DNA of 39,261 nt from an uncultured Muribaculaceae bacterium (GTDB taxonomy: Bacteria; Bacillota_I; Bacilli_A; RF39; UBA660). Below the pieces are notes generated by a model. The model worked only from the letters and a program-made list of their open reading frames with translations. It made no database searches and had not been told where the DNA came from. The DNA lies in assembly GCA_964407175.1 (NCBI GenBank), contig CAYOUK010000002.1:1-39261 (forward strand), read 5' to 3'. Below are positions 1,556 through 30,173 of this stretch, piece after piece. The position numbers were made by a program, and so were the translations under genes. Positions within the stretch are counted from its first letter, which is position 1. The number at the start of each line of letters is the position of its first letter.

Positions 1556-1574
1556 ATTTTTTAATCTACTTTTT
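1551..1574. terminator. Bidirectional factor-independent terminator between convergent genes
   Basis: AGTAGATT (1551-1558) pairs with AATCTACT (1563-1570) as a perfect 8-bp stem with a 4-nt loop. A T-run follows on the + strand (1571-1574) and a T-rich run follows on the - strand (complement of 1541-1550). The hairpin overlaps or abuts both stop codons. The stem is AT-rich and therefore weak. Confidence 0.5.
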
Positions 1575-3006
1575 ACTTTCTAAATAAACCAAATAATCCA
1601 CCAGAGCTTGATTGAGTGTTATTTTTTCTAAATACTCCTAATTTATTTAAGAAGCCATCAAGTACTGCTTGATTATCTTTTCTATCATCAAGTGGAGGAA
1701 TATTATAGAATATTGGTACTTTAGCTTCGTATTCAAACTCTTTTACATCTTGATTAGTAAGCATTGATTTATTAAGTACTATTTTAGAATTCTTTAGTTT
1801 TTCAAGTGCTCTTCTATCGCGACGCATTAGTGTATTTAATTTAATCATGCTAGGTTCCATTAAGTATACAACTTCATTACATGTACCATCTGTTGCAACT
1901 GGGCTATTGTTAATATCAATAAGTACAATCTCATATTGAGAGAATCTATTTTTAACAGTGGATACTTGTGAATTTTGTACACTAATTAATTCTGTATCAT
2001 TGAAGTATGTAAAATCTGTATCATTTACTTCAACAGCTAATACTTTATATCCTTTTAATTGTTTTTTTAACATATATACAAGAGAAGTAGCTCCTGCACC
2101 TTCTGTTAAATCTTTAAATCCAATAACTAATGTTCCATTTACTACAGGTTGACTTTCAGGCTGTGCTTCTACTTGGCTTTGAACAGGAGCATCTTGAATG
2201 AACTGTCCACCTTGAGGTGCTTGTCCCATATTTGCTGGATTATTATAATTTACATTATTTGGCTGTGCTTCTGGTTGCATTTGAGGTGCCATTCCTTGCA
2301 TTTGCATTTGTGGTTGTGGTGGCATTTCAGGTTGCATTTGCATTTGAGGCGCAGCCATTTGATTAGCTGGGAAAGGACTTGGTGCCATTTGACCAGGCAT
2401 TCCAGTATTCATCATACCGCCCATGTTCATATTCATGTTATTCATCATCATAGCTTGTGGATTTGGCTGTGCAACTGGAGCACCAAATGGAGAAATTGGC
2501 TCTTGTGAAGCTTGCATTTGAGGTGCTTGCATTTCAGGCTGTTGCGGCGCTGGTTCTGGTGGCGTTGGAATACTTGTATTATTATCACTACCAGATTTAG
2601 GTGCAAGAGATGAACCAAGGTTAGTATTGGCTAAATCATGATACTGAGCAACATCCCTATAACTATTTGGATTCTCCATTAAATATGTTATACCCGTCAA
2701 CTCTCTAGTAAAGTTATATATACCTAAGCTAATAATCTGAGATAAATAAGAATTATTTACTCTAGGATCGTTATCTAAAAATAGAATAATTTTAGATGAA
2801 TCTATACCAGCGATAAGCTGTTGCATAACAGCAATATTAAAATGGTCTTTTAATGCTGTTATATCTAGAATCATTCTATTAAAATAGAAATTCTGGAATG
2901 TTTCAGTTATAGTTTCAACATCAAACTCTCCATCCATACGTTTGATTACATCAATATTCAAACTAGATAACGAGTCTTTATACTTATTGGCAATAATTAC
3001 ATTCAT
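1573..3006 (-). CDS. TadZ/CpaE-like pilus assembly protein: receiver-like N-domain, P/Q/M-rich linker, degenerate MinD/ParA-like domain
   Basis: The first ~120 aa show a beta-alpha receiver-like pattern. Residues ~131-289 are low complexity (PQMQMQ, MMMNNMNMNMGGMM). The C-terminal part reads LVIGFKDLTEGAGATS...YKVLAVEVN...YEIVLIDINNS, a MinD/ParA layout. SD AAGGAAGGA precedes ATG 3006. It is the last gene of the Tad-like operon. Confidence 0.6.
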   Translation of the reverse strand: MNVIIANKYKDSLSSLNIDVIKRMDGEFDVETITETFQNFYFNRMILDITALKDHFNIAVMQQLIAGIDSSKIILFLDNDPRVNNSYLSQIISLGIYNFTRELTGITYLMENPNSYRDVAQYHDLANTNLGSSLAPKSGSDNNTSIPTPPEPAPQQPEMQAPQMQASQEPISPFGAPVAQPNPQAMMMNNMNMNMGGMMNTGMPGQMAPSPFPANQMAAPQMQMQPEMPPQPQMQMQGMAPQMQPEAQPNNVNYNNPANMGQAPQGGQFIQDAPVQSQVEAQPESQPVVNGTLVIGFKDLTEGAGATSLVYMLKKQLKGYKVLAVEVNDTDFTYFNDTELISVQNSQVSTVKNRFSQYEIVLIDINNSPVATDGTCNEVVYLMEPSMIKLNTLMRRDRRALEKLKNSKIVLNKSMLTNQDVKEFEYEAKVPIFYNIPPLDDRKDNQAVLDGFLNKLGVFRKNNTQSSSGGLFGLFRK

Positions 3007-3037: not shown

Positions 3038-3940
3038 TTATGAAAACGGCAATATTCCAGCGATTCCTGTTCCTGCTGAACCCCATAATTTAAGCGCAGT
3101 ATCTACAACTGCTATTGAGAAGCTTGTTGCAAAGCCAAGCTGTCCATCATTGTCGTCTCCCATCAAATCTACGTGTGTATGCTCTACTTCTTCATCTTCA
3201 TTATCTATTTTTCCGTTTCCGTTAGTATCTTCTTTCCATTTAAGCATACTTGGAAGAAGTGAGTTCCCTTCAATAATAGTATGGCTTGATACATGAGGCT
3301 CTTCTTCTTCGCCTTCATTAATTAAATCTATATTTACATTATAATCATATATAGCTTTAGTATCTCCCGACACTGGTATTTTTATTGCAACTCCAAGTAT
3401 TGGAATATCATATGTAAAAAATGTTGTTATTCTATAATATATTCTATTAGATGCAGCTGGATCTGTTTGTGTAGCATTAACTGTATCATCTTCTGTCTCT
3501 CTTGGCGCTACAAATTCTTGAATATATAAACTACATTCATGACTTGTAACATCAGGAGTAAGACCCATATCATACATACTTAAATAACATACTTTATCAA
3601 AAGAAGTTGCTTCACAATTTTCAGGATTAGTTTCATTACAAGTTAATAATTGTTCTTTCTTTAATTTACCATGTCCAGAATATCCTTGGCTGGCAAGGAA
3701 TGATTTAATTTCTCCCTGAAGTTTACAATACTCTTCAGTAGACCCTTGTCCACATGTTACATGACCAGGATTGGTTCCACTATAATTAAGTCCTTCTTCT
3801 TTTTCTATCATTTTTATAATGTGATTTTTAATTCTAAATGCTTTGTTATAATTAACTGATGCAGATAAAACTGCGATAAACAAAACCATAAAAGTCATAA
3901 CCAACCCAAGTATCCAGGTTGCTCCAATTGACTCTTTCAC
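3038..3940 (-). CDS. TadE-like minor pilin (pseudopilin) with a ~100-aa acidic C-terminal extension
   Basis: The leader MKESIG/ATWILGLVMTFMVLF is followed by a hydrophobic helix. The core is paralogous to the upstream 178-aa protein (RIYYRITTFFTYDIPILGVAIKIPVSGDTKAIYDY versus TVYRITTFYKLDVPVIDLAIQFPISSDTRAIFDF). The GTG start forms a GTGA overlap with the upstream stop, and a strong SD GGAGGTGG lies 7 nt upstream. Confidence 0.6.
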   Translation of the reverse strand: MKESIGATWILGLVMTFMVLFIAVLSASVNYNKAFRIKNHIIKMIEKEEGLNYSGTNPGHVTCGQGSTEEYCKLQGEIKSFLASQGYSGHGKLKKEQLLTCNETNPENCEATSFDKVCYLSMYDMGLTPDVTSHECSLYIQEFVAPRETEDDTVNATQTDPAASNRIYYRITTFFTYDIPILGVAIKIPVSGDTKAIYDYNVNIDLINEGEEEEPHVSSHTIIEGNSLLPSMLKWKEDTNGNGKIDNEDEEVEHTHVDLMGDDNDGQLGFATSFSIAVVDTALKLWGSAGTGIAGILPFS

Positions 3941-4473
3941 GGAGTACCACCTCCAGTATTATTTGCAAAATCAAATATAGCCCTTGTATCACTACTTATA
4001 GGAAATTGAATTGCAAGATCAATAACAGGAACATCTAATTTATAGAATGTTGTTATTCTATACACAGTTTTAGTATTTGTTCCAGTTGGATCGACTTGAC
4101 CATCACTTCTATTGTTTTGCTTAATTGGTTCAACACTTCTTTGAATCCAAACTTCACATTGGTTATAATCATTACTTATTAAACATTCAATTGAACATAG
4201 TGGGTCATTATCTATTACACAATTAAATTTTTGTCTATCATTTATATTACCATGATTAAAATAACCACTATATGATAAGTATCTACTAACTCTATTAACA
4301 AATTGAACGTCTCCATCACGATATCCTTCGTTTAATTCAACCATGCTGACCAAATTATTTTTAACCTGAAAAGACTTAGCTAAATTTATAGCTACAGAAA
4401 TGTATGAAGTAAACAAAATTATAAATGCAATCATAATACCTAAAACCCATGTTGCACCCATAGCCTGTCTCAT
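3937..4473 (-). CDS. TadE-like minor pilin (pseudopilin)
   Basis: The leader MRQAMG/ATWVLGIMIAFIILF is a G-A-T motif followed by a hydrophobic helix, like TadE/TadF N-termini. It has 4 Cys in the mature part. SD AAGGGA is upstream. It sits immediately after the pilin gene. Confidence 0.6.
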   Translation of the reverse strand: MRQAMGATWVLGIMIAFIILFTSYISVAINLAKSFQVKNNLVSMVELNEGYRDGDVQFVNRVSRYLSYSGYFNHGNINDRQKFNCVIDNDPLCSIECLISNDYNQCEVWIQRSVEPIKQNNRSDGQVDPTGTNTKTVYRITTFYKLDVPVIDLAIQFPISSDTRAIFDFANNTGGGTP

Positions 4474-4502
4474 TTAGCTTTCATCCCTTTCTATTAATAG
4501 TT

Positions 4503-4535
4503 ATAAACGTGATAGTGTTTAGCTATCACGTTTAT
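4503..4535 (-). terminator. Intra-operon stem-loop just downstream of the pilin gene (attenuator or mRNA stabiliser)
   Basis: Perfect 13-bp stem ATAAACGTGATAG (4503-4515) / CTATCACGTTTAT (4523-4535) with a 7-nt loop, 25 nt after the pilin stop. No clean U-run follows on the minus strand, so it is probably a partial terminator or a stabiliser. Confidence 0.5.
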
Positions 4536-4559
4536 ATTATTTGCTATATGTTTTTCAGA

Positions 4560-4835
4560 TTATTCTGTTTTTTCATAACAAATTTTTGTAGTATCTTTTG
4601 ATTTACTATCAATATAGTGGCAAGTCCAAGAAGTTGCTCCTGATGCAGCTGTATCACAAGATACTTTATACTTTTCTCCATCTTGTTTATAACCTGCACC
4701 ATTTCCACAAGCTTGTCCTAATATGATATTAGCTCTAAGCATTGGTAGTAAAAATACTGTAAATAAACCTGCGATAGCTGCGATTGCAACAATTGCGATA
4801 ACTGTTGTTGATAGTTCACCTGTTGCTTCCTTCAT
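4560..4835 (-). CDS. Putative major pilin of the Tad-like system (atypical, 91 aa, 4-Cys head)
   Basis: A short charged leader MKEATG is followed by a ~25-aa hydrophobic helix (ELSTTVIAIVAIAAIAGLFTVFLLPML). The gene sits between the platform genes and the TadE-like genes. It has a very strong SD (AAAGGAGGAA), its own promoter and a downstream hairpin. Confidence 0.55.
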   Translation of the reverse strand: MKEATGELSTTVIAIVAIAAIAGLFTVFLLPMLRANIILGQACGNGAGYKQDGEKYKVSCDTAASGATSWTCHYIDSKSKDTTKICYEKTE

Positions 4836-4878: not shown

Positions 4879-4907
4879 ATTATAAATCATATTTATATTT
4901 TTTTCAA
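4879..4907 (-). promoter_or_regulatory. Sigma-A type promoter in front of the pilin gene
   Basis: On the minus strand it reads TTGAAA (complement of 4902-4907), a 17-nt spacer, then TATAAT (complement of 4879-4884). It lies between the tadC-like stop (4927) and the pilin start (4835). Confidence 0.5.
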
Positions 4908-4926: not shown

Positions 4927-5739
4927 TCAGAATAATGAAGCTCCACCACTAACGCTTGTAAATGTCATGAGAATTGCAACTACTAGTAGAATCATAACTC
5001 CAATACCAGTAACAATTAACATACGCATGGTCTTACCTTCCATTTTTTCAAGTCTTTCTTTATATTTTGTTTCACGAGCTTTTTGTTGTAGATTAGAAAT
5101 AGTCTTAGAAAAGCTCATTAATTGTTCTTGTTTTCTCTCTTGTCTACCAAGACTAAGTCTGTATAAAAGTCTCATCATACGCATTGAGTCTCTAACCGGG
5201 AACTCTCTTGCAAATTGCATGTATGGTTCAATTGAAGAATCACCACCATTAATTGAATCAATTAATCTTTGTAATCCTTCTTTAAATATAGGTGGTGCAG
5301 TTTCAATTGATTTACCAATTGCAACTGGCACTGTATAATGTTGAATAAGTATTTCTAGATTCTTTAAATAATAAGGAAGTTGTACATCTATTTCATGCAT
5401 ATGTCTTGCTCTATATGATTTTAAATCCATATAAGGCATTTTATATACAAGAATAATTGCCCCTACTATTGCTAGTAATGATAGATATTTTAAACTAGTT
5501 ATAAATATTATAAAACCTAGTCCTGCAGCGATCATCGCTGATCTTATTCTCTTGTTAAAAGCTTCATCGACATCTACGTCATCACCATATCTCGCTTTTA
5601 GTAAAAAGTCATAATCAGATTCTTTTAACTTTAAGAATAAGTCTTTATTATCAGTCGCTATTCTTTTAATACTTACGACTCCATCATATTCACATAAAGC
5701 AATTAATATTATTGCTACTATTACAATTTCATAATACAT
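4927..5739 (-). CDS. TadC-like inner-membrane platform protein (T2SS-F family)
   Basis: TM helices flank a ~110-aa helical cytoplasmic domain, with a final TM. It is the second of two tandem platform-like genes right after the secretion ATPase. Its start lies 1 nt from the upstream stop. Confidence 0.55.
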   Translation of the reverse strand: MYYEIVIVAIILIALCEYDGVVSIKRIATDNKDLFLKLKESDYDFLLKARYGDDVDVDEAFNKRIRSAMIAAGLGFIIFITSLKYLSLLAIVGAIILVYKMPYMDLKSYRARHMHEIDVQLPYYLKNLEILIQHYTVPVAIGKSIETAPPIFKEGLQRLIDSINGGDSSIEPYMQFAREFPVRDSMRMMRLLYRLSLGRQERKQEQLMSFSKTISNLQQKARETKYKERLEKMEGKTMRMLIVTGIGVMILLVVAILMTFTSVSGGASLF

Positions 5740-5740
5740 A

Positions 5741-6643
5741 TTACTCAGCTCCTATATCTTCATTGTAGAATTTAGTTCCATTAAGTAAGAAGTAAGAATT
5801 AATAAGTATTATGGCATGTAATAATATTTGTATATACCATAACTTACACATATTTAAATATGTTTCTCTTCCGAGCATGAACTGCATTATCATGATAAGT
5901 AAATAAAGCATTAGACCAAAAGTTAAGAACTTTTTATAGAAAGCCGCTCTATCTATTTTGTCACGATATACACCTTCTACAAGCATATCTATATCTAGCA
6001 TCATATTCTCTAGTGATTCACCTGAGTCTTTTGCACCTTCATTTGTAATCTGCAAGAATAATTGATGCATATTTTTTACCATGTAATATGGATATTTATC
6101 ATTCATGAAACTAAGTGCTTCATCAATAGTTCCGTTTGCATATGACATATCAATCATAGTTTTAACATCACTTAATATTGGTTCTTCTAAGATCCCAGAA
6201 TCTCTAACACCTTCAAGTGATTTAACAAAACTCTGTGAAGTATTAAATTCCATAATTACGTTTGTACAGTAAACCTGTATTTCCTCAAATATATATTCAT
6301 TATATATTCTTTTTAATCTTAAATAGTTAACATATGGAACAAATAGTACCGCAACACCTGCATAAATAATTACTAATATAAGATTATAGAAGTAAAGATA
6401 CGCAATACCACCAGCAACTACTGCGAAAAGCACAGCTTGAACAGTATATTGTCTAACAGTGTATTCTTGACCAAGTTCCTTGGCTTTTTGTTTAACTACC
6501 TTGAAACTATATGGTGCGTATTTGTCGTATACTCCACCGATTGTTTCAGTAAAATATTTATATGTACCTTGGCCTGGGCTTTTTCTATATATAAATATAA
6601 ATACTGCGCCAAGTGCCATAATTATAAACTCTAACCAATACAT
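5741..6643 (-). CDS. TadB-like inner-membrane platform protein (T2SS-F family)
   Basis: N-terminal TMs, a central helical cytoplasmic domain and C-terminal TMs. I moved the start to ATG 6643 because SD TAGGTG lies 7 nt upstream and it sits 1 nt after the ATPase stop. The track's GTG at 6652 is the alternative. Confidence 0.55.
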   Translation of the reverse strand: MYWLEFIIMALGAVFIFIYRKSPGQGTYKYFTETIGGVYDKYAPYSFKVVKQKAKELGQEYTVRQYTVQAVLFAVVAGGIAYLYFYNLILVIIYAGVAVLFVPYVNYLRLKRIYNEYIFEEIQVYCTNVIMEFNTSQSFVKSLEGVRDSGILEEPILSDVKTMIDMSYANGTIDEALSFMNDKYPYYMVKNMHQLFLQITNEGAKDSGESLENMMLDIDMLVEGVYRDKIDRAAFYKKFLTFGLMLYLLIMIMQFMLGRETYLNMCKLWYIQILLHAIILINSYFLLNGTKFYNEDIGAE

Positions 6644-6644
6644 A

Positions 6645-7934
6645 TTACGCACCTACACTTTCTGTTTGAGGATTGACTGCTGGTGCCAAAGACGGATTCA
6701 TCTCTGGTAATTCAGCACTAATTTGTGGACTGGCTGCTTGTTGCGCTGCTGGAGCAGTAGGAACAGCTTGTGCTTGAGCTGCTGGAGCAGCAGGAGCAGC
6801 TTGTGCTTGAGCTGCTGGAGCAGCAGGAGCAGCTTGTGCTTGAGCTGCCGGAGCAGCTGGAGCTTCATCCACTTGGTTTAATCTAAACGTATCTTCAGGT
6901 AAAAGTACACCTTGAATAGCTATATAATCCAAAAGATGTTTTGTAGGATTATTCATTGTGATTTTACCTTCCAATGTCTTTTTATAAATCATATTAGATT
7001 TTGCCTCATTCGTTTTATCATCTACATAAAACTCACAAACTTCTAGTATCTCACGCTGGAATCTCTCTAGTTCTCTACTATAGAATCCCTTAACGTATAC
7101 ACCCAGCTGGATATATCTACAAATAGTTCTTTCAAACTGTCCAACATCTTGATTACCTTCAAGAAGCGCGTACATACGCATTGGTATACTTGAAGCTTTA
7201 TCAGAGTGGATTGTCGATATAATGTTATGTCCAGATGATATTGAGTTTCTAACCGCCATAACGGCTTCAGCACTACGAACTTCGGAAATAAGTATCCACT
7301 GAGGATTCTGTCTCATACAGCCTTCTAGTAAGTCTGAGTATGCTGCAATGTTATTTGTTTTCATCGCAACTATATCTCTATGTGGATATATCTTATCTAA
7401 GTGAAGCTCTAAAGTATCTTCAATCGTTATTATCTTTTCATTCTCTTTTATATGACTAGCTAGGTACTTAACAAGCTCTGTTTTACCTGAACCAGTTTCA
7501 CCACTTACTATAATGTTACAGTGTCCTTCGACACATTTCATTAAGAAGTCATGAATTTGTATATTTACATATCCTTCATCTAATAATTTCTTTTTATTAA
7601 GTCTTATCTTAGCTGGTGTTTTACGAATAACACAAGCAACACCATTCGTCGCAATCGACTCATGAACGAAGTTAAGACGGAGTTCTGCACTTTCAGCATC
7701 CAGAAGTGGATGGGCCATATTGAATGTTGAACCCATAACGTTTGAACACTGAAAGGCAAGTTTTTCCATAAAAGCATTATTAATCTCAGGATCTTCAACT
7801 GGATAAATACCTTTGCTTAAAGTCTTTAAATGTATCTGACCACCATTACTATACGATACGTCTGTAATGTCGTCATCATCGAGAAATTTTTGAAGAGGTC
7901 CAAAATCTATCTGGGAGAAAATTGCCTCATTCAT
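6645..7934 (-). CDS. tadA: TadA/CpaF-type (VirB11 superfamily) secretion ATPase with an Ala/Pro/Gln repeat tail
   Basis: Walker A VSGETGSGKTE, IITIEDTLEL, NPQWILISEVRSAEA and SSGHNIISTIHS boxes are typical of T2SS-E/VirB11/CpaF ATPases. SD AAGGAGAG is upstream. The C-terminal ~65 aa are APAAQ-type repeats. Confidence 0.85.
   Translation of the reverse strand: MNEAIFSQIDFGPLQKFLDDDDITDVSYSNGGQIHLKTLSKGIYPVEDPEINNAFMEKLAFQCSNVMGSTFNMAHPLLDAESAELRLNFVHESIATNGVACVIRKTPAKIRLNKKKLLDEGYVNIQIHDFLMKCVEGHCNIIVSGETGSGKTELVKYLASHIKENEKIITIEDTLELHLDKIYPHRDIVAMKTNNIAAYSDLLEGCMRQNPQWILISEVRSAEAVMAVRNSISSGHNIISTIHSDKASSIPMRMYALLEGNQDVGQFERTICRYIQLGVYVKGFYSRELERFQREILEVCEFYVDDKTNEAKSNMIYKKTLEGKITMNNPTKHLLDYIAIQGVLLPEDTFRLNQVDEAPAAPAAQAQAAPAAPAAQAQAAPAAPAAQAQAVPTAPAAQQAASPQISAELPEMNPSLAPAVNPQTESVGA
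6743..6863 (-). repeat. 33-bp in-frame tandem repeat (~3.7 copies) encoding AAPAAPAAQAQ units
   Basis: Units at 6765-6797 and 6798-6830 are identical. The unit at 6831-6863 has 2 mismatches. A partial copy lies at 6743-6764. Confidence 0.9.
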
Positions 7935-7946
7935 ATTCTTCTCTCC

Positions 7947-8819
7947 TTAATTATTATCTTTGTTTTCTTCTGCTTTTTTAGTATCGTCTTTATTATCTGC
8001 ATCATCAGTGTTAGTATCTTCTAACTCACATTCTGCAGTTCCTGTTTCAGACTTAATACATTCATCTGGTATAGTAGCAGTTTGATCAAGTACTAATGTT
8101 TTTAAGTAATCACTACTTACTAGAGTCTCACCAGCTTTAGCAGTATAATTATTATTTCTTGGTACAATTACTATTTGAAGTCCAAGATATTCAGCTTTTT
8201 TAAGTAGTAAATATAAATCTTCTGGTACTGCGAATAGTAATCTTGCTGGTGTTCTATGTTCAACTGTAGTTTCAAATACGTTTCTACCACTTGAATCTTT
8301 AACACCAAGTACTTTTATACTTTGAATAAATTTACCATATAATAATTTTCCATCTGCAGCAGTTGTTCTAAGATATAAATCAATATAATCATCAGGGAAT
8401 ATTGAGTTACCATAAGTAGAATCTTGAGTAACAGGTAAGTTATAAATTGTTTCCCCATCTGGAATAGAATCAAATGCACTATCTGGCATATCTTCAGCAG
8501 TCATTACTGCTTCCTTGTAGAAAAGTGAGTTTTGAGGTATTTCAGCAGCATAGCTTGAATATTTACCTTTTACTTGACTACAATCTTGAATAACATTTCC
8601 TGTAATCTGAGTAGATAAAACTTTTGTTGTTGAAAGCATATCTTCAGTTATGGCAGTTCTTGCTGGAATAGTTTGTGATGCTACACAAACAGTTGTTGTT
8701 TGAACAGCACTTTTAAGTCTCCAAGAATAAACTGCATATACTAGTACAACACAAACTAAAATTGCTAGTAAAGTAACAGTATTCTTATTTGATAAAAATC
8801 TTTTTAATGTATTACCCAT
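7947..8819 (-). CDS. cpaB: CpaB/RcpC-like Flp pilus assembly protein (N-terminal TM anchor, SAF-like domain)
   Basis: A TM anchor (VTLLAILVCVVLVYAVY) is followed by VASQTIPARTAITEDMLSTTKV, a SAF-domain-like start. The gene lies immediately upstream of the ATPase. Strong SD AAAGGAGGAA. The C-terminal tail is acidic. Confidence 0.6.
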   Translation of the reverse strand: MGNTLKRFLSNKNTVTLLAILVCVVLVYAVYSWRLKSAVQTTTVCVASQTIPARTAITEDMLSTTKVLSTQITGNVIQDCSQVKGKYSSYAAEIPQNSLFYKEAVMTAEDMPDSAFDSIPDGETIYNLPVTQDSTYGNSIFPDDYIDLYLRTTAADGKLLYGKFIQSIKVLGVKDSSGRNVFETTVEHRTPARLLFAVPEDLYLLLKKAEYLGLQIVIVPRNNNYTAKAGETLVSSDYLKTLVLDQTATIPDECIKSETGTAECELEDTNTDDADNKDDTKKAEENKDNN

Positions 8820-8858: not shown

Positions 8859-9272
8859 CTAACTTCCATTGCTAAGCTCCAAAATAGCATTTATTCTATT
8901 CTTAAGTGCTACACTGGTAGTAGTTGTATCTCTTACAAAGAATTGGGATGACGTCGTTGATACTTCAACTGTCACCTTTGGTGGAACTTCATATATGTCA
9001 TAGAAGTTAATTGTTGTCGTTTTATTAATTGTAATAACTTCTGCATATCTTCTAATGAAGTTTTCCATAAATTTCTCACTGCTTATTCTAAGTTCACCAT
9101 ATTTTCTATAATAAGCATAATCAACAGCTTCTATCATTGAAGCTTCTGTTATTTGTTTTGTCATGTAATAGTTTTGTTCGCTGGTTGTTGTCATGTCAGT
9201 TACTAGTAAAATGACTGATAACACAATCAAGCCTAGAACCATCATCCACCAGCCCCACACAGCTTCATTCAT
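8859..9272 (-). CDS. Small membrane-anchored protein of unknown function (Tad-operon member)
   Basis: One N-terminal TM helix (WWMMVLGLIVLSVILLV) plus a ~105-aa T-rich ectodomain. SD GGGGTGA is upstream. I recognise no family. Confidence 0.5.
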   Translation of the reverse strand: MNEAVWGWWMMVLGLIVLSVILLVTDMTTTSEQNYYMTKQITEASMIEAVDYAYYRKYGELRISSEKFMENFIRRYAEVITINKTTTINFYDIYEVPPKVTVEVSTTSSQFFVRDTTTTSVALKNRINAILELSNGS

Positions 9273-9330: not shown

Positions 9331-10035
9331 TCATAATTCTTTGTCATATCTCCTTCTAAGCATTTCCTGTAGAACCACGTAAGCTAAGGCTATAAGTGCA
9401 GTTCCAACAGCTACTATAATTATTATCTTTTTATGATCTTTTATTTGTTCTAATAAAGCTTTGTTTTTTGGATCTGTATCTGGTGGTGCGACTTTATTTA
9501 AAAATGCTGCATTAGAGCCAAAATCAAAGTCTTCCTTTACAAACTTCTTACAAAAGTCTTCACTGCTGGTCTTGCAGTATTCATATTCACTATATGGATT
9601 ATATTTAGGTGTAGTTATTTTTTTTGTTCCAACAAGGTCACCTTTACACATTACTCTATTTGAATAAATACTTAACTTATAGTTATAAATGTTGCTGTAG
9701 TCATAATGTTCATATGTATAAACACCATTTTTAGTATCTTCATAAGAAACATTGACTTGAACGTTATCTACATCATTTGATAATACAACATATATATCAT
9801 CTTTAATATTATAAATATTTATTTTATAAATGTAGTTTGGAATAGTATATGTTGTTTTATTGTTACCAACCTTTAATGGGACGATTTTGCTATTATCCTC
9901 AACGTCGTAGCTAATTTGAACTTGGTTTGCGGCTTTTTTAATTTCTAGGTTCTCTGTAGAACTACAAGATAAAGCACTTACATCAAGTGCTGAAAAAGTA
10001 ATAAGCAAGAAAAACAACATAATTACTTTCTTCAT
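9331..10035 (-). CDS. Type-I membrane protein of unknown function (signal peptide, 4-Cys ectodomain, C-terminal TM plus basic tail); paralog of the 176-aa protein
   Basis: Signal peptide MKKVIMLFFLLITFSALDVSA, a Y/N-rich beta-like ectodomain, then a TM (IIIIVAVGTALIALAYVVL) followed by RRRYDKEL. It is the first gene of the Tad-like operon. Confidence 0.55.
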   Translation of the reverse strand: MKKVIMLFFLLITFSALDVSALSCSSTENLEIKKAANQVQISYDVEDNSKIVPLKVGNNKTTYTIPNYIYKINIYNIKDDIYVVLSNDVDNVQVNVSYEDTKNGVYTYEHYDYSNIYNYKLSIYSNRVMCKGDLVGTKKITTPKYNPYSEYEYCKTSSEDFCKKFVKEDFDFGSNAAFLNKVAPPDTDPKNKALLEQIKDHKKIIIIVAVGTALIALAYVVLQEMLRRRYDKEL

Positions 10036-10107: not shown

Positions 10108-10145
10108 TTATAAAAAAACCTAATTGTTTTTTTACAATTAGGTTT
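10108..10145 (-). terminator. Factor-independent terminator after the giant gene
   Basis: 11-bp perfect stem AAACCTAATTG (10116-10126) / CAATTAGGTTT (10135-10145) with an 8-nt loop, followed on the minus strand by TTTTTATAAAAAAA. The stop codon lies inside the stem. Confidence 0.7.
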
Positions 10146-13100
10146 ATTCATATACACTAAGTTTTCCAAGTACATCTCTAACCATTTGACTAACGACTCC
10201 ACTTACTACATCATCTGTTAAATTATTGCCATTTTGATTAAGTTCAATACCAACAGAAGACAGTAATCGTTTTAGAACGGTAGAAGCTTCAGATGTAAAC
10301 ATTCCTTGGTCTGCGCCCGATAATACATCTCTAAATGTCGATGCATATGTCCATATAAGTGATCCAAATTCCTCAAGTGTTGGAACATGATCCATAGACA
10401 CATATATTCTAGTTGGATCTTCACTTTTAATAAGTTTTTCTCCGTTTGTAACATTTTTATAAGCTTCATAATCTAGTTTATTCTGCTTAGTTATAAGTTT
10501 TTGAATATTAGCCTTTAAATCCCATTCTTCAGATTGATTCGAATCTGATTTGTAACTAGAGAATACGTCTTTGATATCTTGTTTTACTTCAGGGGTGTAT
10601 TTAATTGTCTGAACTGGAGATACAATATCATTACAATAATCATTTCCACCATAGTATATACACCATAAGAATGGACTATACCAGTGATATCCAATGTTAT
10701 TATCCTGGTTATTATATCTTCTATATACATAATCAGGTACAGTAGTAGATGCGCTTGATGATGTATCTTTAAAATCAACTATCCATTTAGTAGAACCATC
10801 AGCATTATCAAATCTTCTTACATTTCCGTCGCTATCTTCTTCCGAAAGCCCATTATAATCAACAATTCCAAGAGACCAATCGGCATATCCTCTTCTTTGG
10901 TTTCCGCCAACTGCAGAATTATTGTTAAGAGTTCCGCTGTTATCAGTAATTATAGACATTTTCACTCTATTATAACGACGTATTAGTCTCATTGTAGGAG
11001 TGGATAACCTAAATGTGAATTTATCCTTACCTGTTAAAACTTGATAATCATTATCTGCTTGTTTAAATAAGTTGTCTTCAGAATCATCTCCTGTACCAGC
11101 TAACCTAGATGCTTTATATGCCTCTATTCTTTGAACAAGACCATTATAAGGACCTTTTGTTGATGCTAGATTACTATAGTTCCAGTTTGCTCCAAGCGCT
11201 CTTTTTTGAGGATTAATATCGCTTAAGGCAATAGTTCTATAGAAGAAGTTAGCGTTTCCTAAATCTTCATCTACTTTATATGAACATACATATTGTTCTG
11301 TTCCACCCGAACCAATATATCCATCACTAGTTAAAGTTTTGGCTTCGTGCGGACTAGATATATTTGCTTTATCTGCAAGACCTTGATTCTTAATATAGTT
11401 TTGAAGTGAATAATCATCTACAGTATTATCATGTGATACTTCTGAAACCATTTCAGAATCTATTCCGCCCACTTGAGATGATGCTTTTGACCATTCATCC
11501 CATGTACTTTGTGGAACTTTACTTGGTTTTTCTGTGTCTAATGTTGGCATCTTTCTTGTTGGTCCCATATTTATATCGACACTTATTCTAAAATTCTTAG
11601 TTCCACTTGTTGTATCAAATCCAATTGGAATCGAGTTATTCGGAAGTACAACATATTCAGAGTTTTTAGCAAGTACACTATCATCAAACTTATCCATATA
11701 TGTTATGGCAGTACCACCCTTAACTATTATTTGAGGAATAGATGCATAAAGAACTATATTTTCACTCTTATAATAATAGTCTTTAACTGTCCAGAATCCA
11801 TTTAAGAAGTCATACCAGAACTTTTCTAAGTTTACTCCAAGAGATGTAATGACATTTTGATCAGCATAGTCTTCCGCTGCTGGGATAGCCGCACATTTTG
11901 CCCACATTCTTTCATAAAATGAATCTCCTGTTTCATTCTGCAAGTCAGCAGCGGTTGTATCTGAACAAGCATATACTGGAGAAGACCTTGAGTCATCAGC
12001 ACTAGTTAGTTCATTACCACTTTCATCTGCACAGAAGATACCAAGGTCAGCAAGACTAAGTTCTCCATTTTCACCAGCTTGAACCTCAATAAACTGTTTA
12101 TGTAAATTAGGACACTTAATAGCTCTTAAATCAAGATCTATATATCCTTGATTATCTTTTATAGCAGTATCATAATCATCATAATATAATCTTGCTTTAA
12201 CTATTGGTGTGTTGCTAGAGTTATTACCCTTAATATACTCAGTAATACTATTGGCAATCTGAGCTCTCTCAGTTGGATCAGTTGTTTGATTATGATCTAA
12301 ATCAATACCAAATAAATTACTATATTGTAGATAATTTTTAAAGAACTGATGTTGAACGTTGAAATTAACTTGATTGACAAGAATATCTGTAGGGTTAAAA
12401 GTACGTGTACTAAGCGCCTTGGTAGATACACATGTTTTCTTGAGTTCTATTTTAGCAATAGGTGCTCTTGTATCAATTGTTTTATTATTAAATTCTCTAT
12501 TATAAGTAAAGTATGAGTTATTATTACCAATCGTTACAAACTGACCTTTTTGACCACTATCCTGAATACCAGGATAAGTTATTTTATATGCATCAGCACA
12601 TACTATATCCATACCGCGATATCTAAGTGATTTCATAGAATCAGGAAGTATACTATATCCAACTCCAGTGGCTTTTCCTCTTGATAACTGTGAATACCAG
12701 CTGTCATAATCTCTAATAACATTTCCAGAGCTATCTTTTTCTATTCTATTTGGAGATGCTTCGATGTATTTACCAGATGATACTTCTTGGTAATCATCTA
12801 CAGTACAAGCATAATCCATATCTATATGATATGCTTTACATTTAACAACAGGTGTAGTTGTTGTTTGCATAAATGTGGTTAGTTCAGCAGATAATGCCCC
12901 GGTAATACCTGAGTGAGCAAAAGTGTCTCTATTATAGTATGGGTTATCACTTAATTCTATTCTTTGATAATGGATTTTGCTATCTGTTGCTCCCCATCTA
13001 AAACCATTGTAACCAGCATATTCATAATGATAATTACCATTGGCGTCATAACAACACTCTGTTTCTTCGTTACATCCACATGTTTTTACTTGTAATATTG

Positions 13101-15252
13101 CAGATAAGTCAGCAGCATAAATATGCTTAGTCATAGCTGATATTACCGGCGGCCATCCCCAAGTATCACTTATACTGAACTGTGTTGCAGTTCCTTTCAT
13201 TTGTCGAGCCTGGCTTTCAGGGACTGCTTTAGCGCCACTTAACAATAGTGCTTCTATGCCATCTAAACCTAGGACTTTATCTACACCCTCTGAAACACTT
13301 TTAGATGAAATTAGGGTGAAGAAGGTATCTACTCCATTTTGGAGAAGGTCTGTGGTCATGTCCCCAAATAATCCAGCAGTCTTGACAGATTCTAATAGTT
13401 TATAAGTTTCTATTTGTTCTATTTCTTTAGAATCTAATGGCACTAAATTACCATCTACTATTTTTTTAGATTCTTTCAACATATTTGCTGTTCCATTGTA
13501 ATTTAGACCAGTCGAGTCATAACAACACTCTATTTCTGGATCACAACCACAGCTTTTCATTATTACTTTGTTTTGGTCTGCTACAGGAAGTTTATCGGCT
13601 TTTAACAAATCAATATTTTGATAATTAGTTCTACCATTAGAGTCAGTATATGGTATAACAGCGCGATATCTGTCTAATACGTTTGGAACCTGTATTTGTA
13701 TTGTATTTCTGCGTCCTTCCTCGTCTCCTGAAAGATATACTGTTTCAGCAAAAAGTGTTGGTTTATCTTTAACGTATTCATACCTTAGGGATGCCGCATT
13801 AACGTTACCAAGGATATTACTTATACTGCTGTCGGCGATTTCATTAACTTTGTCATGTATATTACCAATGATATTTAAACTATCAAAAAGACTAATAATT
13901 TGACTTCTACCAATGATGTCGTTTAATTTATTACTAGCATCTTGAAGTGCATTATAAGCACCAAATAAACCTTGGTTAGTTTTTTTATAACAACATTCTT
14001 CTAATGGATTACATGTAATTTCACACTTTGTTAGAATTCCTCCACTTGTGTCACTTCCATGTTCTTTTCCATCCCAATATCCAGTTTTAGTATATGTATA
14101 ATGATCAGGTGTATCTTTACGAATAGTTGAATCATAATGAACCACTACATTACCATTTTCATCTACGTTAGTTTGACTACCACCTGATAACATATCCATA
14201 ATCCTCGAGAATATTCCAGAAAGAAAACCTCCCGTATTACTGTTACTTGTTGCACCGGAGAATGAAGCTCCATCTGCATAACAACAAGTCTTATTTTCAT
14301 CACATGGTTCTACGGTTGGTCCCTCACAAGTATATGCCATTACATATATTACAGGCGAATAGTAAAAGTATGTACAATCAGCAAAAGGTGATGTTATTTG
14401 ATTACACACTGAAATTTCTGTACCAGGAGGTACTGTTGGTAAAAATGAAGAATAATAAGCTTCAGTAGAAGCCTTTTTTCTTTCGACAAGAAATTTTTTC
14501 GCATTGCCATTTCCATAAAAAGGAATACTAAAGTCGCTAGAAGTATAATTTTTTGATAAAGATTTTCCAGAATAACCGCCAGAATATGTAGGTTTTTCAA
14601 AATATAAATCTACTTTTGTCTTAGGCAATAAAGTTGACTTTTCATTAACAGGATAAATTGTTCCTGTTATTGCCCTAGACGCAGTAAAGTCCCAAGCATT
14701 AGTAATATCTTCGTCGCTGTGTGAATTAACACCCGCATTGCTACCTGGAATAATTAATCTAATTTCTGATGTGTTATCTCCACTACCAATTACTTTATAT
14801 ATATAATTGTTTTCATTAGGTGTCCATCCGTTCTCTGATTTTTTGTTAGAATATAAATCTGTTATTTTCTTTAATTGATTCCAGTATTCATCAACGCTCC
14901 AATTATTTTTAAGATCTAACCCTGAAATTGAACCTGAGCAGGTACTGGCATTTTCTACTGTTTGATTTCTTCCATAATTTCCTCCAATAAATGTTAGATG
15001 ATGAGTTGTATTAAAACCTATTGTGCCAGAACAACCAACTCTATAGATATGCTCATCAAATTGAAAGAAATCGTATGGTTCAGAAAGATTCTCGTGAGCG
15101 TCAAAGGAATATTCCCCAGCTCTAAAGAAATAAATATTGTAATAAGTTCTTCCCTGGACACATGAAAAATTATCGGTGTTGTCCATTTCGGCATATACAT
15201 CGATAACAAAACACACTAAAAGAATAAGTAGAATGTTTAATACTTTTTTCAT
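10144..15252 (-). CDS. 1702-aa secreted giant protein of unknown function with four C-x-C-x5-CCY cysteine clusters
   Basis: Uninterrupted 5.1-kb ORF with Sec signal peptide MKKVLNILLILLVCFVIDVYA/EMD. It has no C-terminal TM and no LPXTG. The start overlaps the stop of the upstream gene (ATGA), with SD AAAGGGG upstream. Confidence 0.8.
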   Translation of the reverse strand: MKKVLNILLILLVCFVIDVYAEMDNTDNFSCVQGRTYYNIYFFRAGEYSFDAHENLSEPYDFFQFDEHIYRVGCSGTIGFNTTHHLTFIGGNYGRNQTVENASTCSGSISGLDLKNNWSVDEYWNQLKKITDLYSNKKSENGWTPNENNYIYKVIGSGDNTSEIRLIIPGSNAGVNSHSDEDITNAWDFTASRAITGTIYPVNEKSTLLPKTKVDLYFEKPTYSGGYSGKSLSKNYTSSDFSIPFYGNGNAKKFLVERKKASTEAYYSSFLPTVPPGTEISVCNQITSPFADCTYFYYSPVIYVMAYTCEGPTVEPCDENKTCCYADGASFSGATSNSNTGGFLSGIFSRIMDMLSGGSQTNVDENGNVVVHYDSTIRKDTPDHYTYTKTGYWDGKEHGSDTSGGILTKCEITCNPLEECCYKKTNQGLFGAYNALQDASNKLNDIIGRSQIISLFDSLNIIGNIHDKVNEIADSSISNILGNVNAASLRYEYVKDKPTLFAETVYLSGDEEGRRNTIQIQVPNVLDRYRAVIPYTDSNGRTNYQNIDLLKADKLPVADQNKVIMKSCGCDPEIECCYDSTGLNYNGTANMLKESKKIVDGNLVPLDSKEIEQIETYKLLESVKTAGLFGDMTTDLLQNGVDTFFTLISSKSVSEGVDKVLGLDGIEALLLSGAKAVPESQARQMKGTATQFSISDTWGWPPVISAMTKHIYAADLSAILQVKTCGCNEETECCYDANGNYHYEYAGYNGFRWGATDSKIHYQRIELSDNPYYNRDTFAHSGITGALSAELTTFMQTTTTPVVKCKAYHIDMDYACTVDDYQEVSSGKYIEASPNRIEKDSSGNVIRDYDSWYSQLSRGKATGVGYSILPDSMKSLRYRGMDIVCADAYKITYPGIQDSGQKGQFVTIGNNNSYFTYNREFNNKTIDTRAPIAKIELKKTCVSTKALSTRTFNPTDILVNQVNFNVQHQFFKNYLQYSNLFGIDLDHNQTTDPTERAQIANSITEYIKGNNSSNTPIVKARLYYDDYDTAIKDNQGYIDLDLRAIKCPNLHKQFIEVQAGENGELSLADLGIFCADESGNELTSADDSRSSPVYACSDTTAADLQNETGDSFYERMWAKCAAIPAAEDYADQNVITSLGVNLEKFWYDFLNGFWTVKDYYYKSENIVLYASIPQIIVKGGTAITYMDKFDDSVLAKNSEYVVLPNNSIPIGFDTTSGTKNFRISVDINMGPTRKMPTLDTEKPSKVPQSTWDEWSKASSQVGGIDSEMVSEVSHDNTVDDYSLQNYIKNQGLADKANISSPHEAKTLTSDGYIGSGGTEQYVCSYKVDEDLGNANFFYRTIALSDINPQKRALGANWNYSNLASTKGPYNGLVQRIEAYKASRLAGTGDDSEDNLFKQADNDYQVLTGKDKFTFRLSTPTMRLIRRYNRVKMSIITDNSGTLNNNSAVGGNQRRGYADWSLGIVDYNGLSEEDSDGNVRRFDNADGSTKWIVDFKDTSSSASTTVPDYVYRRYNNQDNNIGYHWYSPFLWCIYYGGNDYCNDIVSPVQTIKYTPEVKQDIKDVFSSYKSDSNQSEEWDLKANIQKLITKQNKLDYEAYKNVTNGEKLIKSEDPTRIYVSMDHVPTLEEFGSLIWTYASTFRDVLSGADQGMFTSEASTVLKRLLSSVGIELNQNGNNLTDDVVSGVVSQMVRDVLGKLSVYE

Positions 15253-15779
15253 TTGTTCTTACCCCTTTTTAATACAAATATAGCTAAAACAAATAATCCA
15301 ATTGTTGCAACTATTAGTCCAATAGTAATTAAAATCTTTTTAGTAGATAGACCATTTGAAACAACAGATCCATCATCGAATACTTTTGTTGCGCCTTTAT
15401 TATAATATGGTAAAAATATTTCTTCAGTTTTAATAGGTTTATTAGTACATCCTTTAAAATAGAAATATATATTGTTTACTCCACCAAATACTTTAGCAGA
15501 TCCATTAGATATAATTTGCGAATTATCTCCTGAATCCATAACTAGTGCCATAAAATTATCATTTAATCCTTCAACAGATATATTTATATATTTAACGGGT
15601 ACTCCATTTTTATCTTTATTAGCAACATTATCGTATTTTATTACATAATTATAATCAATTTCATTTAAAGCTTTTCTATATTCTCTTAAGTTTCCATCAG
15701 CGCATAAGTTTGCAGCGCTAACTAAACTAGGTATAAGTAAAAAAGACATAATTATTACATATGTTAATATTCTTTTCAT
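15249..15779 (-). CDS. Type-I membrane protein of unknown function (signal peptide, ectodomain, C-terminal TM plus KRGKNK tail); paralog of the 234-aa protein
   Basis: Signal peptide ...LLIPSLVSA/AN and C-terminal TM ILITIGLIVATIGLFVLAIFVL. SD AAGGTAGGTG is upstream. It is translationally coupled to the giant gene. Confidence 0.6.
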   Translation of the reverse strand: MKRILTYVIIMSFLLIPSLVSAANLCADGNLREYRKALNEIDYNYVIKYDNVANKDKNGVPVKYINISVEGLNDNFMALVMDSGDNSQIISNGSAKVFGGVNNIYFYFKGCTNKPIKTEEIFLPYYNKGATKVFDDGSVVSNGLSTKKILITIGLIVATIGLFVLAIFVLKRGKNK

Positions 15780-15834: not shown

Positions 15835-15868
15835 CGAAAAAATAACAAAACTGTTAAGTTTTGTTATT
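15835..15868 (-). terminator. Factor-independent terminator after the SBP lipoprotein gene
   Basis: 11-bp perfect stem AATAACAAAAC (15841-15851) / GTTTTGTTATT (15858-15868) with a 6-nt loop, followed on the minus strand by TTTTCGCTTT. The stop codon is in the stem. Confidence 0.65.
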
Positions 15869-16730
15869 CCATTAATTCTTTTTTGAAGTTATCAATATTG
15901 TCTCTCATCATAGTTTCATATGTTGTATGTTCGTTTTCTTCGCTTTCAGATAAAACAGTCATCGAATGTATTTTATTTATCTCTGCTCCAAGATTTTTTA
16001 ATTCTTCTGTTGCAGCAGTTTCTTTTGTTGTATCAAGCATATATATATATTTTACTTTTCCGCTTGCTATTAATCTTCTTGCTTCTTCCATTGACTTAGA
16101 AGATACTTCATAATATGTACTATCAACATCAGTGACTGTTAAACCATATTCACTTAAGAAAAGTAATTCTTCACTTGCTATTATTATATTTTTATCTTCA
16201 GCATTAATAGACATCATTTCCATCTCTGCATCATAACTACTTATCAATAGTTTTAAATCATTATAATTTTTGTTAATCTCTTGTTTTACAACAGTGCTTT
16301 TAATATAATTTTCAAGCCCTGTTTTTAAGTTATTAGCAAGCATTAGAAAGTCACTTGGATTAAGCCATAATTCACAAATGCCTCTTTCATATTCCATGCC
16401 TTCACTAACATCTATTATTTTCATATTATTATTTCTGTTTATTAAATCTCTTGCAATAAGTGTTTCATCTCCAAGGCCATTATATACAAATAGTCCTCCC
16501 TCAGCATAACTTTCTTTTTGTTTGTTAGTTAAACTATATTTAGATAAATCCACTCCTGCTGGATAAATACTTTTTACATTAGAGTTATATCCATATAATT
16601 TCTCTGTTATATATGTAATTGGGTAAACAGTTGTATATACATCTATATCTTCAAGATCATCTCTTTTAAAACAACCCGATAGTAATAATAAAGTTATTAA
16701 AATCACACATAATTTTTTTAGTTTGTTCAT
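15864..16730 (-). CDS. ZnuA/TroA-like (cluster A-I) solute-binding lipoprotein, orphan
   Basis: Lipobox LLLSGC. VYTTVYPITYITEKLYG, ELWLNP and LFLSEYGL resemble the conserved blocks of Zn/Mn ABC substrate-binding proteins. I moved the start to ATG 16730 because SD AAGGTGA lies 5 nt upstream. No ABC ATPase or permease gene is adjacent. Confidence 0.6.
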   Translation of the reverse strand: MNKLKKLCVILITLLLLSGCFKRDDLEDIDVYTTVYPITYITEKLYGYNSNVKSIYPAGVDLSKYSLTNKQKESYAEGGLFVYNGLGDETLIARDLINRNNNMKIIDVSEGMEYERGICELWLNPSDFLMLANNLKTGLENYIKSTVVKQEINKNYNDLKLLISSYDAEMEMMSINAEDKNIIIASEELLFLSEYGLTVTDVDSTYYEVSSKSMEEARRLIASGKVKYIYMLDTTKETAATEELKNLGAEINKIHSMTVLSESEENEHTTYETMMRDNIDNFKKELME

Positions 16731-16840
16731 TTCTATCACCTTTTTACTTGATATATTAATTTTACTATAATTTGGCCTTTTTGTAAAATAAAACTAGTAA
16801 TTTAACTTATTATTTTATATAATATTTACGGTGATTAAAA

Positions 16841-24666: not shown

Positions 24667-25476
24667 TCATCTTTTCTTTTTTTCTATATCTTTTATACTT
24701 TTATTTGGAGTTGGCATATTTTCTGGCATTGTTCCTCCTGCTTTTTTTATTGCTTTTCTAACAATCTTTCCGACTTCATTATGTGCTTTATTAGCATTAG
24801 ATTCTCCTTCTATTTTTTCTCTTTTCAATTTATCATCAGTTTGAGTAATTCTAAAAAGATTAGCAGCAAGCTCAATACTTCCCATATTATCCAGAATATC
24901 TTCCCTATACCTTAATCCTTTTCTATTGGCACTATCAGCAACAGTCTCTCCATTATATAATCCTTTATACCCTGCATTATGAAAACTATCAAAGTTTTTA
25001 ACGCCGCTTTTTTTTGCGGTTTGATTAAGAGAATAATTGCCCCTTCTTGTCAATGCCCTTTGAAATAATCTTTTGTCATCTTCTGAAATGCTATTATACC
25101 CGATTTCTAATAATTCTTGTTTTCTTGTTTGAACTGCAAAATAAGTCTGTGCCAAAGCCACGACTTCTTTTCTTGGATCAGCATTTTGAGCAATCAAATA
25201 ACAGGCATACCTAGTCAATTTATAACTTTTAACATATTGTGTGTTTCCGTTTCCACCTTTTATCGGTTTCCTAATATCAAGAAACTGTTCATTTAATTCT
25301 TTTTCACTTAAAACACAAGCTATCTTTGCTTTTTTAATAACCTTATGAAAGTTTTCCCACTTGTTATATTCTAGTATTTTCTGTAATTCTCTAGCGTCCC
25401 AATATTCTTTTTTATATTTGTCCATATGTTTAATTTTCTCAAACATACTTTCAGTATTATTAATAATTTCTTTCAT
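24667..25476 (-). CDS. dinD: DNA damage-inducible protein D homolog (Bro-N/KilA-N-like N-domain)
   Basis: RYACYLIAQNADPRKEVVALAQTYFAVQTRKQE, MGSIELAANLFRITQTDDKLKRE and GGTMPENMPTP..SIK match E. coli DinD blocks from memory. Strong SD AGGAGG. Confidence 0.8.
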   Translation of the reverse strand: MKEIINNTESMFEKIKHMDKYKKEYWDARELQKILEYNKWENFHKVIKKAKIACVLSEKELNEQFLDIRKPIKGGNGNTQYVKSYKLTRYACYLIAQNADPRKEVVALAQTYFAVQTRKQELLEIGYNSISEDDKRLFQRALTRRGNYSLNQTAKKSGVKNFDSFHNAGYKGLYNGETVADSANRKGLRYREDILDNMGSIELAANLFRITQTDDKLKREKIEGESNANKAHNEVGKIVRKAIKKAGGTMPENMPTPNKSIKDIEKKKR

Positions 25477-25527: not shown

Positions 25528-25543
25528 AAGAGGATAACCTCTT
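25528..25543 (-). terminator. Short terminator hairpin after the 788-aa gene
   Basis: AAGAGG (25528-25533) pairs with CCTCTT (25538-25543) with a 4-nt loop, followed on the minus strand by TTTTTTATGAG. The stop codon is inside the stem. The stem is only 6 bp. Confidence 0.45.
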
Positions 25544-28945: not shown

Positions 28946-28967
28946 GTCTTTTCCCTTTCTATTTTTT

Positions 28968-30089: not shown

Positions 30090-30118
30090 TGCAATCATCT
30101 CTTTCAATAAAACAAATC

Positions 30119-30145
30119 ACTATCTGCCTATAAAAGGCAGATAGT
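30119..30145 (-). terminator. Stem-loop between the subunit gene and the signal peptidase gene (attenuator or stabiliser)
   Basis: 10-bp perfect stem ACTATCTGCC (30119-30128) / GGCAGATAGT (30136-30145) with a 7-nt loop, followed on the minus strand by GATTTGTTTTATTG. Confidence 0.5.
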
Positions 30146-30173
30146 CACTTGTAAATCTATATATTAATTATGA

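Follow-up and report, generated by a model that had tools for sequence, protein, structure and literature searches.

Firmicutes normally exclude cysteine from their exported proteins, and a bias towards even cysteine numbers in such proteins is an accepted computational signature of disulfide bonding (PMC2823432); functional DsbA/VKOR enzymes occur in Clostridia (PMC12453122). In the Ena fibres of Bacillus, a Cys-Cys doublet bonds two separate single cysteines, each cysteine of the doublet taking a different partner, and the bonds are intermolecular (bioRxiv 10.1101/2020.08.21.260141). In gene content, the closest known counterparts of the locus described here are the Tad (type IVc) pilus loci of monoderm bacteria, such as the tad loci of Bifidobacterium breve and Erysipelotrichales (PMC12786226). 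The window, a stretch of 39,261 nucleotides from an uncultured Muribaculaceae bacterium (GenBank assembly GCA_964407175.1, contig CAYOUK010000002.1, positions 1 to 39,261; GTDB lineage Bacteria; Bacillota_I; Bacilli_A; RF39; UBA660), likewise encodes an apparent TadA-clade ATPase and CpaB-like protein, along with two polytopic membrane proteins, one small protein that resembles a pilin and pseudopilins of the TadE/F kind. We know of no described Tad locus that contains a giant Sec-exported protein of 960-1700 amino acids (aa) together with DUF5411, and both are present here. Our subject is that giant protein and the four dense cysteine clusters dispersed along it. We estimate a probability of about 55% that each cluster forms two intramolecular disulfides and so acts as a double-disulfide staple.

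An earlier note on this DNA had drawn attention to the clusters, and translation and mapping bore out both their positions and the spacings of 93, 158 and 157 aa between their first cysteines. The cores are PCDENKTCCY (aa 316-325, 14278-14307), CEITCNPLEECCY (aa 410-422, 13987-14025), CGCDPEIECCYD (aa 568-579, 13516-13551) and CGCNEETECCYD (aa 725-736, 13045-13080). Copy 1 has an extra invariant cysteine, C309, in YTCEGPTVEPCDENKTCCY, eight residues ahead of C317, and all four copies are therefore four-cysteine clusters: each holds four invariant cysteines within 11-16 residues, with the next cysteine 70-150 residues beyond. For a protein of this composition the pattern C-x5-CCY is expected by chance 0.00078 times; even one match arose in just 8 of 20,000 shuffles, at least four CC doublets in 46 of 20,000, and the pattern occurs nowhere else in an open frame in the six frames of the window. 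The shuffle statistics, together with conservation in orthologues, exclude a chance origin of the clusters.

Some of the surrounding detail had been read too strongly. Copies 3 and 4 are close at the DNA level, as had been remarked (30 of 36 positions identical), but this is without value as evidence of recent duplication because it follows from 8 of 12 identical residues and an AT-rich codon bias; recent duplication and gene conversion were rejected as explanations, the shared residues and codon bias being sufficient. Segments resembling GLFG do exist downstream of three copies (aa 341-352, 427-436 and 625-634), but only the Q-G-L-x-G past copy 2 is kept in orthologues, the other two not holding their position. 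The acidic residues called invariant actually follow the consensus [DN]-[PE]-E-x-[EQ], which is not strict.

A search of 5.8 billion clustered proteins returned four full-length homologues (P0001-P0004), one 99% identical to the giant and three about 45% identical. In P0002-P0004 all 16 cysteines and all four tyrosines of the motifs are invariant, within a region (aa 283-760) that is the least conserved part of the giant, with 35-39% identity to orthologues and 24% invariant columns. The motif is evidently under strong constraint. Two ways in which the clusters might have turned out ordinary, absence from orthologues and assignment of the cysteines to a known fold, did not arise: 20 of 20 motif residues were invariant, and no known fold could be assigned.

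The distant relatives show that the cysteine motif opens a longer module, about 25 residues in length and confined to the giant family, with the consensus C-(G)-C-[DN]-[PE]-E-x-x-C-C-[YF]-D-[SA]-x-G-N-Y-[HQ]-x-[ED]-Y. The repeated modules that had been proposed thus exist on this small scale, but homology past about 25 residues is weakly supported. Self-BLASTP of the giant showed no internal repeat, and the 91-97% probabilities that hhalign gave between sub-alignments of modules 2/3 and 3/4 were driven by the cysteine motif at an effective sequence number (Neff) of 1.5-2 and were not relied on. Searches with the module by itself were also negative: a word-indexed search with a 44-aa module alignment gave zero candidates, a Pfam scan of isolated modules gave nothing, and a PDB search with a 44-column module profile gave no significant match, the only match to the cysteine part being the spider inhibitor cystine knot (ICK) toxin GsMTx2 (E=3.6).

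Module copy number among the relatives is 0, 1, 3 or 4. There are none in P0008-P0010, single copies in P0011 (KKCNPNGENNCCYSRNGTYQPNY) and P0012 (TCDKSRQCCFDSTGNYHAEY), and three copies 50-70 residues apart in the 962-aa P0005 (CRKPCDPTRECCYDSSG, CGCDPTGACCYDSSGNLHREY and CGCEPMKKCCFDSSGNYQYN); a relative from a Joint Genome Institute (JGI) metagenome, on contig L003, carries GCDKTNQCCYDDAGNYHYEY. In the family alignment, copy 4 of the giant is matched by the single copy in P0011, by that in P0012 and by the third one in P0005. It lies just upstream of the conserved core, and we therefore infer that copy 4 (aa 725-748) is ancestral, with copies 1-3 as probable lineage-specific additions. The spacing from cysteine to CC doublet is x5 in 20 of the 20 copies listed and x6 in the single P0011 copy, and the other cysteine stands at -2, -4 or -8 and is locally absent in P0011, P0012 and L003.

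The earlier note had left three options for the clusters: a metal site, a disulfide knot that staples modules which recur along the protein, and a reactive site, for instance a thioester or cross-link. Even cysteine counts, paired gains of cysteine and the mobile fourth cysteine favour the staple, and the thioester is disfavoured. Mature giant homologues have 32, 36, 36, 36, 24, 22 and 34 cysteines, all even, and P0002-P0004 differ from the giant of the window by two additional cysteine pairs, at S-C-K-N-P...C and T-C-M-x-G-Y-C. The conserved extracytoplasmic cysteines of the other exported proteins of the locus are likewise even in number, with four in the pilin, four in the TadE-like and six in the TadF-like protein, four in the 234-aa and two in the 176-aa protein, and four in the CpaB-like protein, whose fifth cysteine lies in the transmembrane (TM) segment and is not conserved. 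Cysteine is scarce in exported proteins from the rest of the window (one in a 788-aa protein, two in an LtaS-like protein). Given that Firmicutes normally exclude exported cysteine (PMC2823432), the locus is therefore an exception.

The case for the staple is statistical and comparative, and it is from this that the formation of disulfides, their pairing pattern and their structural role are inferred. The fixed spacing to the doublet and the mobility of the other cysteine together lead to a tentative pairing in which the partner is defined by proximity in three dimensions. One cysteine of the doublet would bond the cysteine five residues off and close a tight acidic Asx-Pro turn, and the other would bond the second, variably placed single cysteine nearby in space; in copy 4, C727 would pair with C733 or C734 and C725 with the other of the two. 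A doublet bonded in this way to two separate single cysteines has a precedent in the Ena fibres (10.1101/2020.08.21.260141). The two bonds would tie a preceding segment that resembles a beta-strand to a following Tyr-rich hairpin, and the outcome would be a compact rivet at the module junctions, resistant to protease and force. The flanks do look strand-like, with hydrophobic alternation before the cluster and Y-x-Y-x-Y after a G-N turn, which suggests a small stapled beta-meander around each cluster. Copy numbers of 0, 1, 3 or 4 fit a dispensable structural rivet better than a catalytic centre. In mechanism the clusters thus most likely vary a well-known theme, the disulfide staple of secreted proteins.

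Several points weigh against the staple. P0013, a distant member, has 47 cysteines, which is an odd number. The host is probably an anaerobe in a phylum that generally avoids exported cysteine, and the available sequence showed no thiol oxidase. A regular hairpin in two-residue register bars both cross-strand bonds from C-x-C and C-C, so that the geometry must be irregular; four cysteines are also the canonical number for a zinc or iron site, and the invariant glycine of C-G-C, like the strain in the CC doublet, is a feature of redox-active motifs. Nor is there a structural model, since AlphaFold predictions at a predicted local distance difference test score (pLDDT) of 30-37 make neither the fold nor the Cys-Cys distances readable: AlphaFold2 gave an unusable pLDDT of 30.1 for aa 270-760 (4 sequences) and 36.8 for aa 701-1702 (11 sequences), and a Foldseek search of the latter model, at that pLDDT of 36.8, found nothing in PDB at E<=0.001.

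The alternative that survives best, although we consider it unlikely, is a metal site with Cys4 (or Cys3 plus another ligand) binding Zn2+, Fe or Cu and folding or cross-bracing the module. The exact number of four invariant cysteines in 11-16 residues, acidic residues close by and a likely anaerobic habitat that keeps thiols reduced would all suit such a site, and a gene for a ZnuA-family lipoprotein is conserved at the start of the block, both in the window and in L001, L002 and L004. However, C-x-C with an adjacent C-C offers poor tetrahedral geometry for one ion, unlike CxxC knuckles such as those of the zinc ribbons in the window's own TopA, and the fourth cysteine is locally absent in three relatives (P0011, P0012 and L003). 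The even-cysteine pattern across the locus also includes many isolated cysteine pairs, which are impossible as metal sites. As to the ZnuA-like protein, all three canonical His ligand positions appear substituted in an alignment with YcdH and AdcA; the gene is absent at the P0011 and P0009 loci (L005 and L006), and its synteny within the close clade is inseparable from that of rnc and smc. We also considered this neighbour as a zinc chaperone and rejected it, because the canonical ligands are apparently lost and the gene is missing from more distant loci.

Less probable again are reactive thiol-disulfide sites, in which C-G-C and the vicinal C-C would form an exchange relay, or the doublet would carry intermolecular disulfides of the Ena kind to pilins, to the 176- and 234-aa anchor proteins or between copies of the giant, and so covalently rivet a surface assembly. 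CXC motifs and vicinal disulfides can be redox-active, as in Erv2 (C-G-C) and Mia40 (C-P-C), and copies 3 and 4 keep the glycine of C-G-C without exception, as does P0005, but copies 1 and 2 lack C-G-C altogether. Ena is a precedent for Cys-Cys cross-links (10.1101/2020.08.21.260141), and every partner protein in the locus has conserved cysteines; the even count within each protein, on the other hand, argues for intramolecular pairing, and Pfam and NCBIfam scans found no thioredoxin-like or other catalytic domain. A bolder version, in which we place still less confidence, would make the CCY modules covalent docking or redox sites that exchange disulfides with the cysteine pairs of pilin, pseudopilin and membrane anchors, and the giant, riveted covalently and spanning the cell wall, the sheath or tip adhesin of an undescribed monoderm Tad-like machine, a disulfide-cross-linked type IV filament system of anaerobic spore-formers.

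A thioester (Cys-Gln, as in the TED adhesins of Gram-positive bacteria) or a Cys-Tyr cross-linked cofactor is very improbable: the organism is Gram-positive, the giant is one of its surface proteins and the motif cysteine adjoins an invariant Tyr/Phe, but there is no TED or other Pfam match, the sole neighbouring Gln, ahead of CC, is exchanged for Glu both between proteins and inside a single one (EECC, IECC, TQCC), a His close by is likewise exchanged for Gln or Asn, and the change of Tyr to Phe in copy c of P0005 and in P0012 excludes an essential Tyr hydroxyl.

The giant is a member of a new, DUF5411-linked protein family of about 1000-1700 aa. It carries the C-terminal signature of that family and its gene lies within 0-1 genes upstream of DUF5411. 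Its leader is of the classical Sec type, ending VYA/E, and not a class III signal peptide of the type IV pilin or Tad pseudopilin kind; the stop codon of its gene is at 10144-10146. The family is very rare, with about 13 proteins among 1.8-5.8 billion: an exhaustive search of 1.84 billion representatives with a HMMER profile of aa 300-1490 gave only 10 proteins, the family alignment, used in a word-indexed search, brought in P0013 alone, and a contig scan with the DNA pattern of the signature, TAYMGNNNNRTN(N12)ATHAAYCCN(N6)MGNNNNYTNGGNNNNAAYTGG, led to one JGI metagenome contig, L003. A scan of GTDB representatives found no relative, a weak negative that used two N-terminal peptide patterns only. 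Sequence searches of Pfam (no match at E<=0.01), NCBIfam, PHROGs and PDB gave no match for the giant, the libraries were also blank for its relatives, and a PDB search with the full-family profile gave nothing significant.

Two regions at the ends of these proteins are of separate interest. The C-terminal tail of the giant (10144-10573, minus strand; aa ~1560-1702) and those of P0002-P0004 are lineage-specific, with Gly-rich, hydrophobic amphipathic segments (for example GGLLIGVDTSGLVNAGGSVLGKLIGAATG in P0002) that recall membrane-active or glycine-zipper peptides; the tail is absent in P0005 and P0008-P0012, which end just past an LI-KQN-LD helix. The P0011 giant (L005 10001-13582) was called as one open reading frame (ORF), and its N-terminal ~215 aa resemble the separate upstream anchored protein, with a signal peptide followed by a TM segment and KKRKK; either the two genes are fused or a stop or frameshift went unnoticed in the assembly.

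Features of the giant gene and its locus in the window, with positions in nucleotides.
Feature	Position	Strand	Remarks
Giant ORF	10144-15252	minus	1702 aa by translation; Sec-type signal peptide aa 1-21 (MKKVLNILLILLVCFVIDVYA); mature protein with 32 Cys
Cys cluster 1	14278-14328	minus	C309-x7-C317-x5-C323-C324-Y325; invariant in orthologues
Cys cluster 2	13987-14025	minus	C410-x3-C414-x5-C420-C421-Y422, then conserved Q-G-L-x-G
Cys cluster 3 and extension	13486-13551	minus	C568-G-C570-DPEIE-C576-C577-Y578-DSTGLNYNGTA; extended consensus common to P0005, P0011 and P0012
Cys cluster 4 and extension	13009-13080	minus	C725-G-C727-NEETE-C733-C734-Y735-DANGNYHYEYAGY; directly N-terminal to conserved core
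Conserved core and C-terminal region	10573-12855	minus	aa ~800-1560; 60-62% identical to orthologues; also in distant P0005-P0013
Family signature	11182-11241	minus	Y-R-x-[IV]-x4-I-N-P-x2-R-x-L-G-x-N-W; present in all relatives
ZnuA-family lipoprotein, orphan	15864-16739	minus	heads gene block; no adjoining ABC permease/ATPase genes
176-aa protein	15249-15779	minus	signal peptide and C-terminal TM anchor; 2 conserved Cys; 4-bp overlap with giant start
Terminator-like hairpin	10116-10145	minus	12-bp stem and T run; overlaps giant stop codon and runs downstream; consensus scan only
234-aa protein	9331-10035	minus	signal peptide and C-terminal TM anchor; 4 conserved Cys
DUF5411 protein	8859-9272	minus	E=2.7e-52; universal downstream partner of giant family
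CpaB/RcpC-like protein	7947-8819	minus	TIGR03177 E=2.3e-12, below cut-off; 4 conserved extracytoplasmic Cys
TadA/VirB11/FlaI-clade secretion ATPase (T2SSE)	6645-7934	minus	Pfam T2SSE E=9e-29, above cut-off
Two polytopic membrane proteins	4927-6652	minus	TadB/TadC by position only; no Pfam/T2SSF match
91-aa pilin-like protein	4560-4835	minus	MKEATG/ELSTTVIAIVAI...; 4 conserved Cys
Two TadE/TadF-like pseudopilins	3038-4473	minus	N-termini M..G/ATW.LG...; 4 and 6 conserved Cys
477-aa Q/P/M-rich protein	1573-3006	minus	possibly TadZ-like; P-loop-like C-terminal domain

DUF5411 follows the gene of the giant family, with 0-1 genes between, in 8 of the 8 relatives' contigs that have downstream sequence (L001-L008), including that of P0009, which lacks the motif, and that of the very distant P0013, and a CpaB-sized gene and then the ATPase come next wherever these contigs continue. 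The 176-aa protein gene is a conserved upstream neighbour in L001, L002 and L004. The consistent order of giant, DUF5411, CpaB and ATPase genes ties the giant to the Tad-like (type IV filament) locus, either as one of its conserved components or as a cargo dedicated to it. On the contig of P0013, prophage-like genes for Gp10_C tail proteins, a holin and a CHAP/PG_binding endolysin immediately precede the giant/DUF5411 block (L007 3102-7081); on the other contigs the block is flanked by housekeeping genes.

The ATPase matched the NCBIfam VirB11, TadA and FlaI models at E 1e-27 to 1e-32, all below curated cut-offs, and the G/(A,E)-hydrophobic N-termini of the 91-, 178- and 300-aa proteins were read from sequence. 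No prepilin peptidase (peptidase A24) was found in the window, and Rfam gave nothing there. Consensus scans alone gave a sigma-70-like promoter match of 11/12 upstream of the 91-aa pilin-like gene (4879-4907) and a terminator-like hairpin with a 15-bp stem downstream of it (4502-4536); together with the hairpin that follows the giant gene, these suggest separate transcription units in the locus and high pilin expression. The C-terminus of the ATPase (6645-6800) is a low-complexity tail that ends in tandem APAAPAAQAQA repeats and the 477-aa protein has a long Q/P/M-rich region (2100-2600) ahead of its P-loop-like domain, neither with a Pfam match.

The window is low in G+C (~24-35%) and carries the housekeeping and sporulation genes rnc, smc, scpA/B-like, spoIVA, topA, rnhB and ylqF-like, which mark it as part of the chromosome of a spore-forming Firmicute; the hosts of the giant locus are low-GC, spore-forming and probably anaerobic Firmicutes. 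A possible second surface-structure locus lies at 25542-30749 (minus strand), where a 191-aa and a 788-aa protein have the N-terminal motif '...(S/G)VGFATY' in common. Their genes adjoin that of an archaeal/SipW-type signal peptidase I of 379 aa with a long multi-TM N-terminal extension (TIGR02228, E=6.5e-24), and also that of a DUF5305 protein. Past a GGGG linker, the 788-aa protein has a Hint/intein-like segment from CLAEGT (weak Pfam Hint and NCBIfam intein matches), which suggests autoprocessing. A BRO-N domain protein is encoded at 24667-25476 (minus strand), and the equivalent position in relatives (L001, L002 1-515) holds ORF6N-domain proteins; these genes are phage-derived, antirepressor-like and adjoin spoIVA.

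If the staple reading is true, it adds a cysteine-rich mini-module and a family with an obligatory DUF5411 neighbour in the Tad-like locus of uncultured gut Firmicutes, and a clear exception to the 'cysteine exclusion' of exported Firmicute proteins (PMC2823432). A whole surface machine would then be built with conserved paired cysteines, implying dedicated oxidative folding in an anaerobe, and DUF5411-type loci would gain a candidate adhesin, conduit or substrate. The interest at the level of the system lies in the universal presence of a giant accessory protein in loci of the DUF5411 type and in paired cysteines in a phylum that normally avoids exporting them. Were the clusters reactive or metal-binding, the significance would be considerably higher.

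TED adhesins are recognised by a TED/TQXA match and a cysteine with an invariant Gln, and the giant has neither. Metallothioneins and Cys4 zinc ribbons also have four clustered cysteines, and C-x-C and C-C spacings occur in metallothioneins; zinc ribbons have two CxxC/CPxC knuckles, whereas the giant is without CxxC knuckles, its spacing being C-x1/3/7-C-x5-C-C, with zero cysteines for 90-150 residues past a cluster, aromatic-rich surroundings, in which it differs from metallothioneins, and an extracytoplasmic location. With alpha-conotoxins (CC-C-C) and inhibitor cystine knots (C-C-CC-C-C) the giant shares dense cysteines, a CC doublet and short fixed loops. Its clusters, however, have 4 (or 3) cysteines and not the six that a knottin has in ~30-40 residues, run in the reversed order C-C-CC, show no sequence homology and are embedded in a 1700-aa protein, where a conserved Tyr-rich hairpin follows. 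The N-terminal connector of Ena1A/Ena1B in the Bacillus cereus group shares with the giant a CC doublet in a surface or fibre protein of a spore-forming Firmicute. The Ena subunit is a DUF3992 jellyroll, whereas the giant, at 1702 aa, has no DUF3992 or other Pfam match and its clusters are internal; its partner cysteines lie 6-16 residues upstream on the same chain, and cysteine parity suggests that their bonds, unlike those of Ena, are intramolecular.

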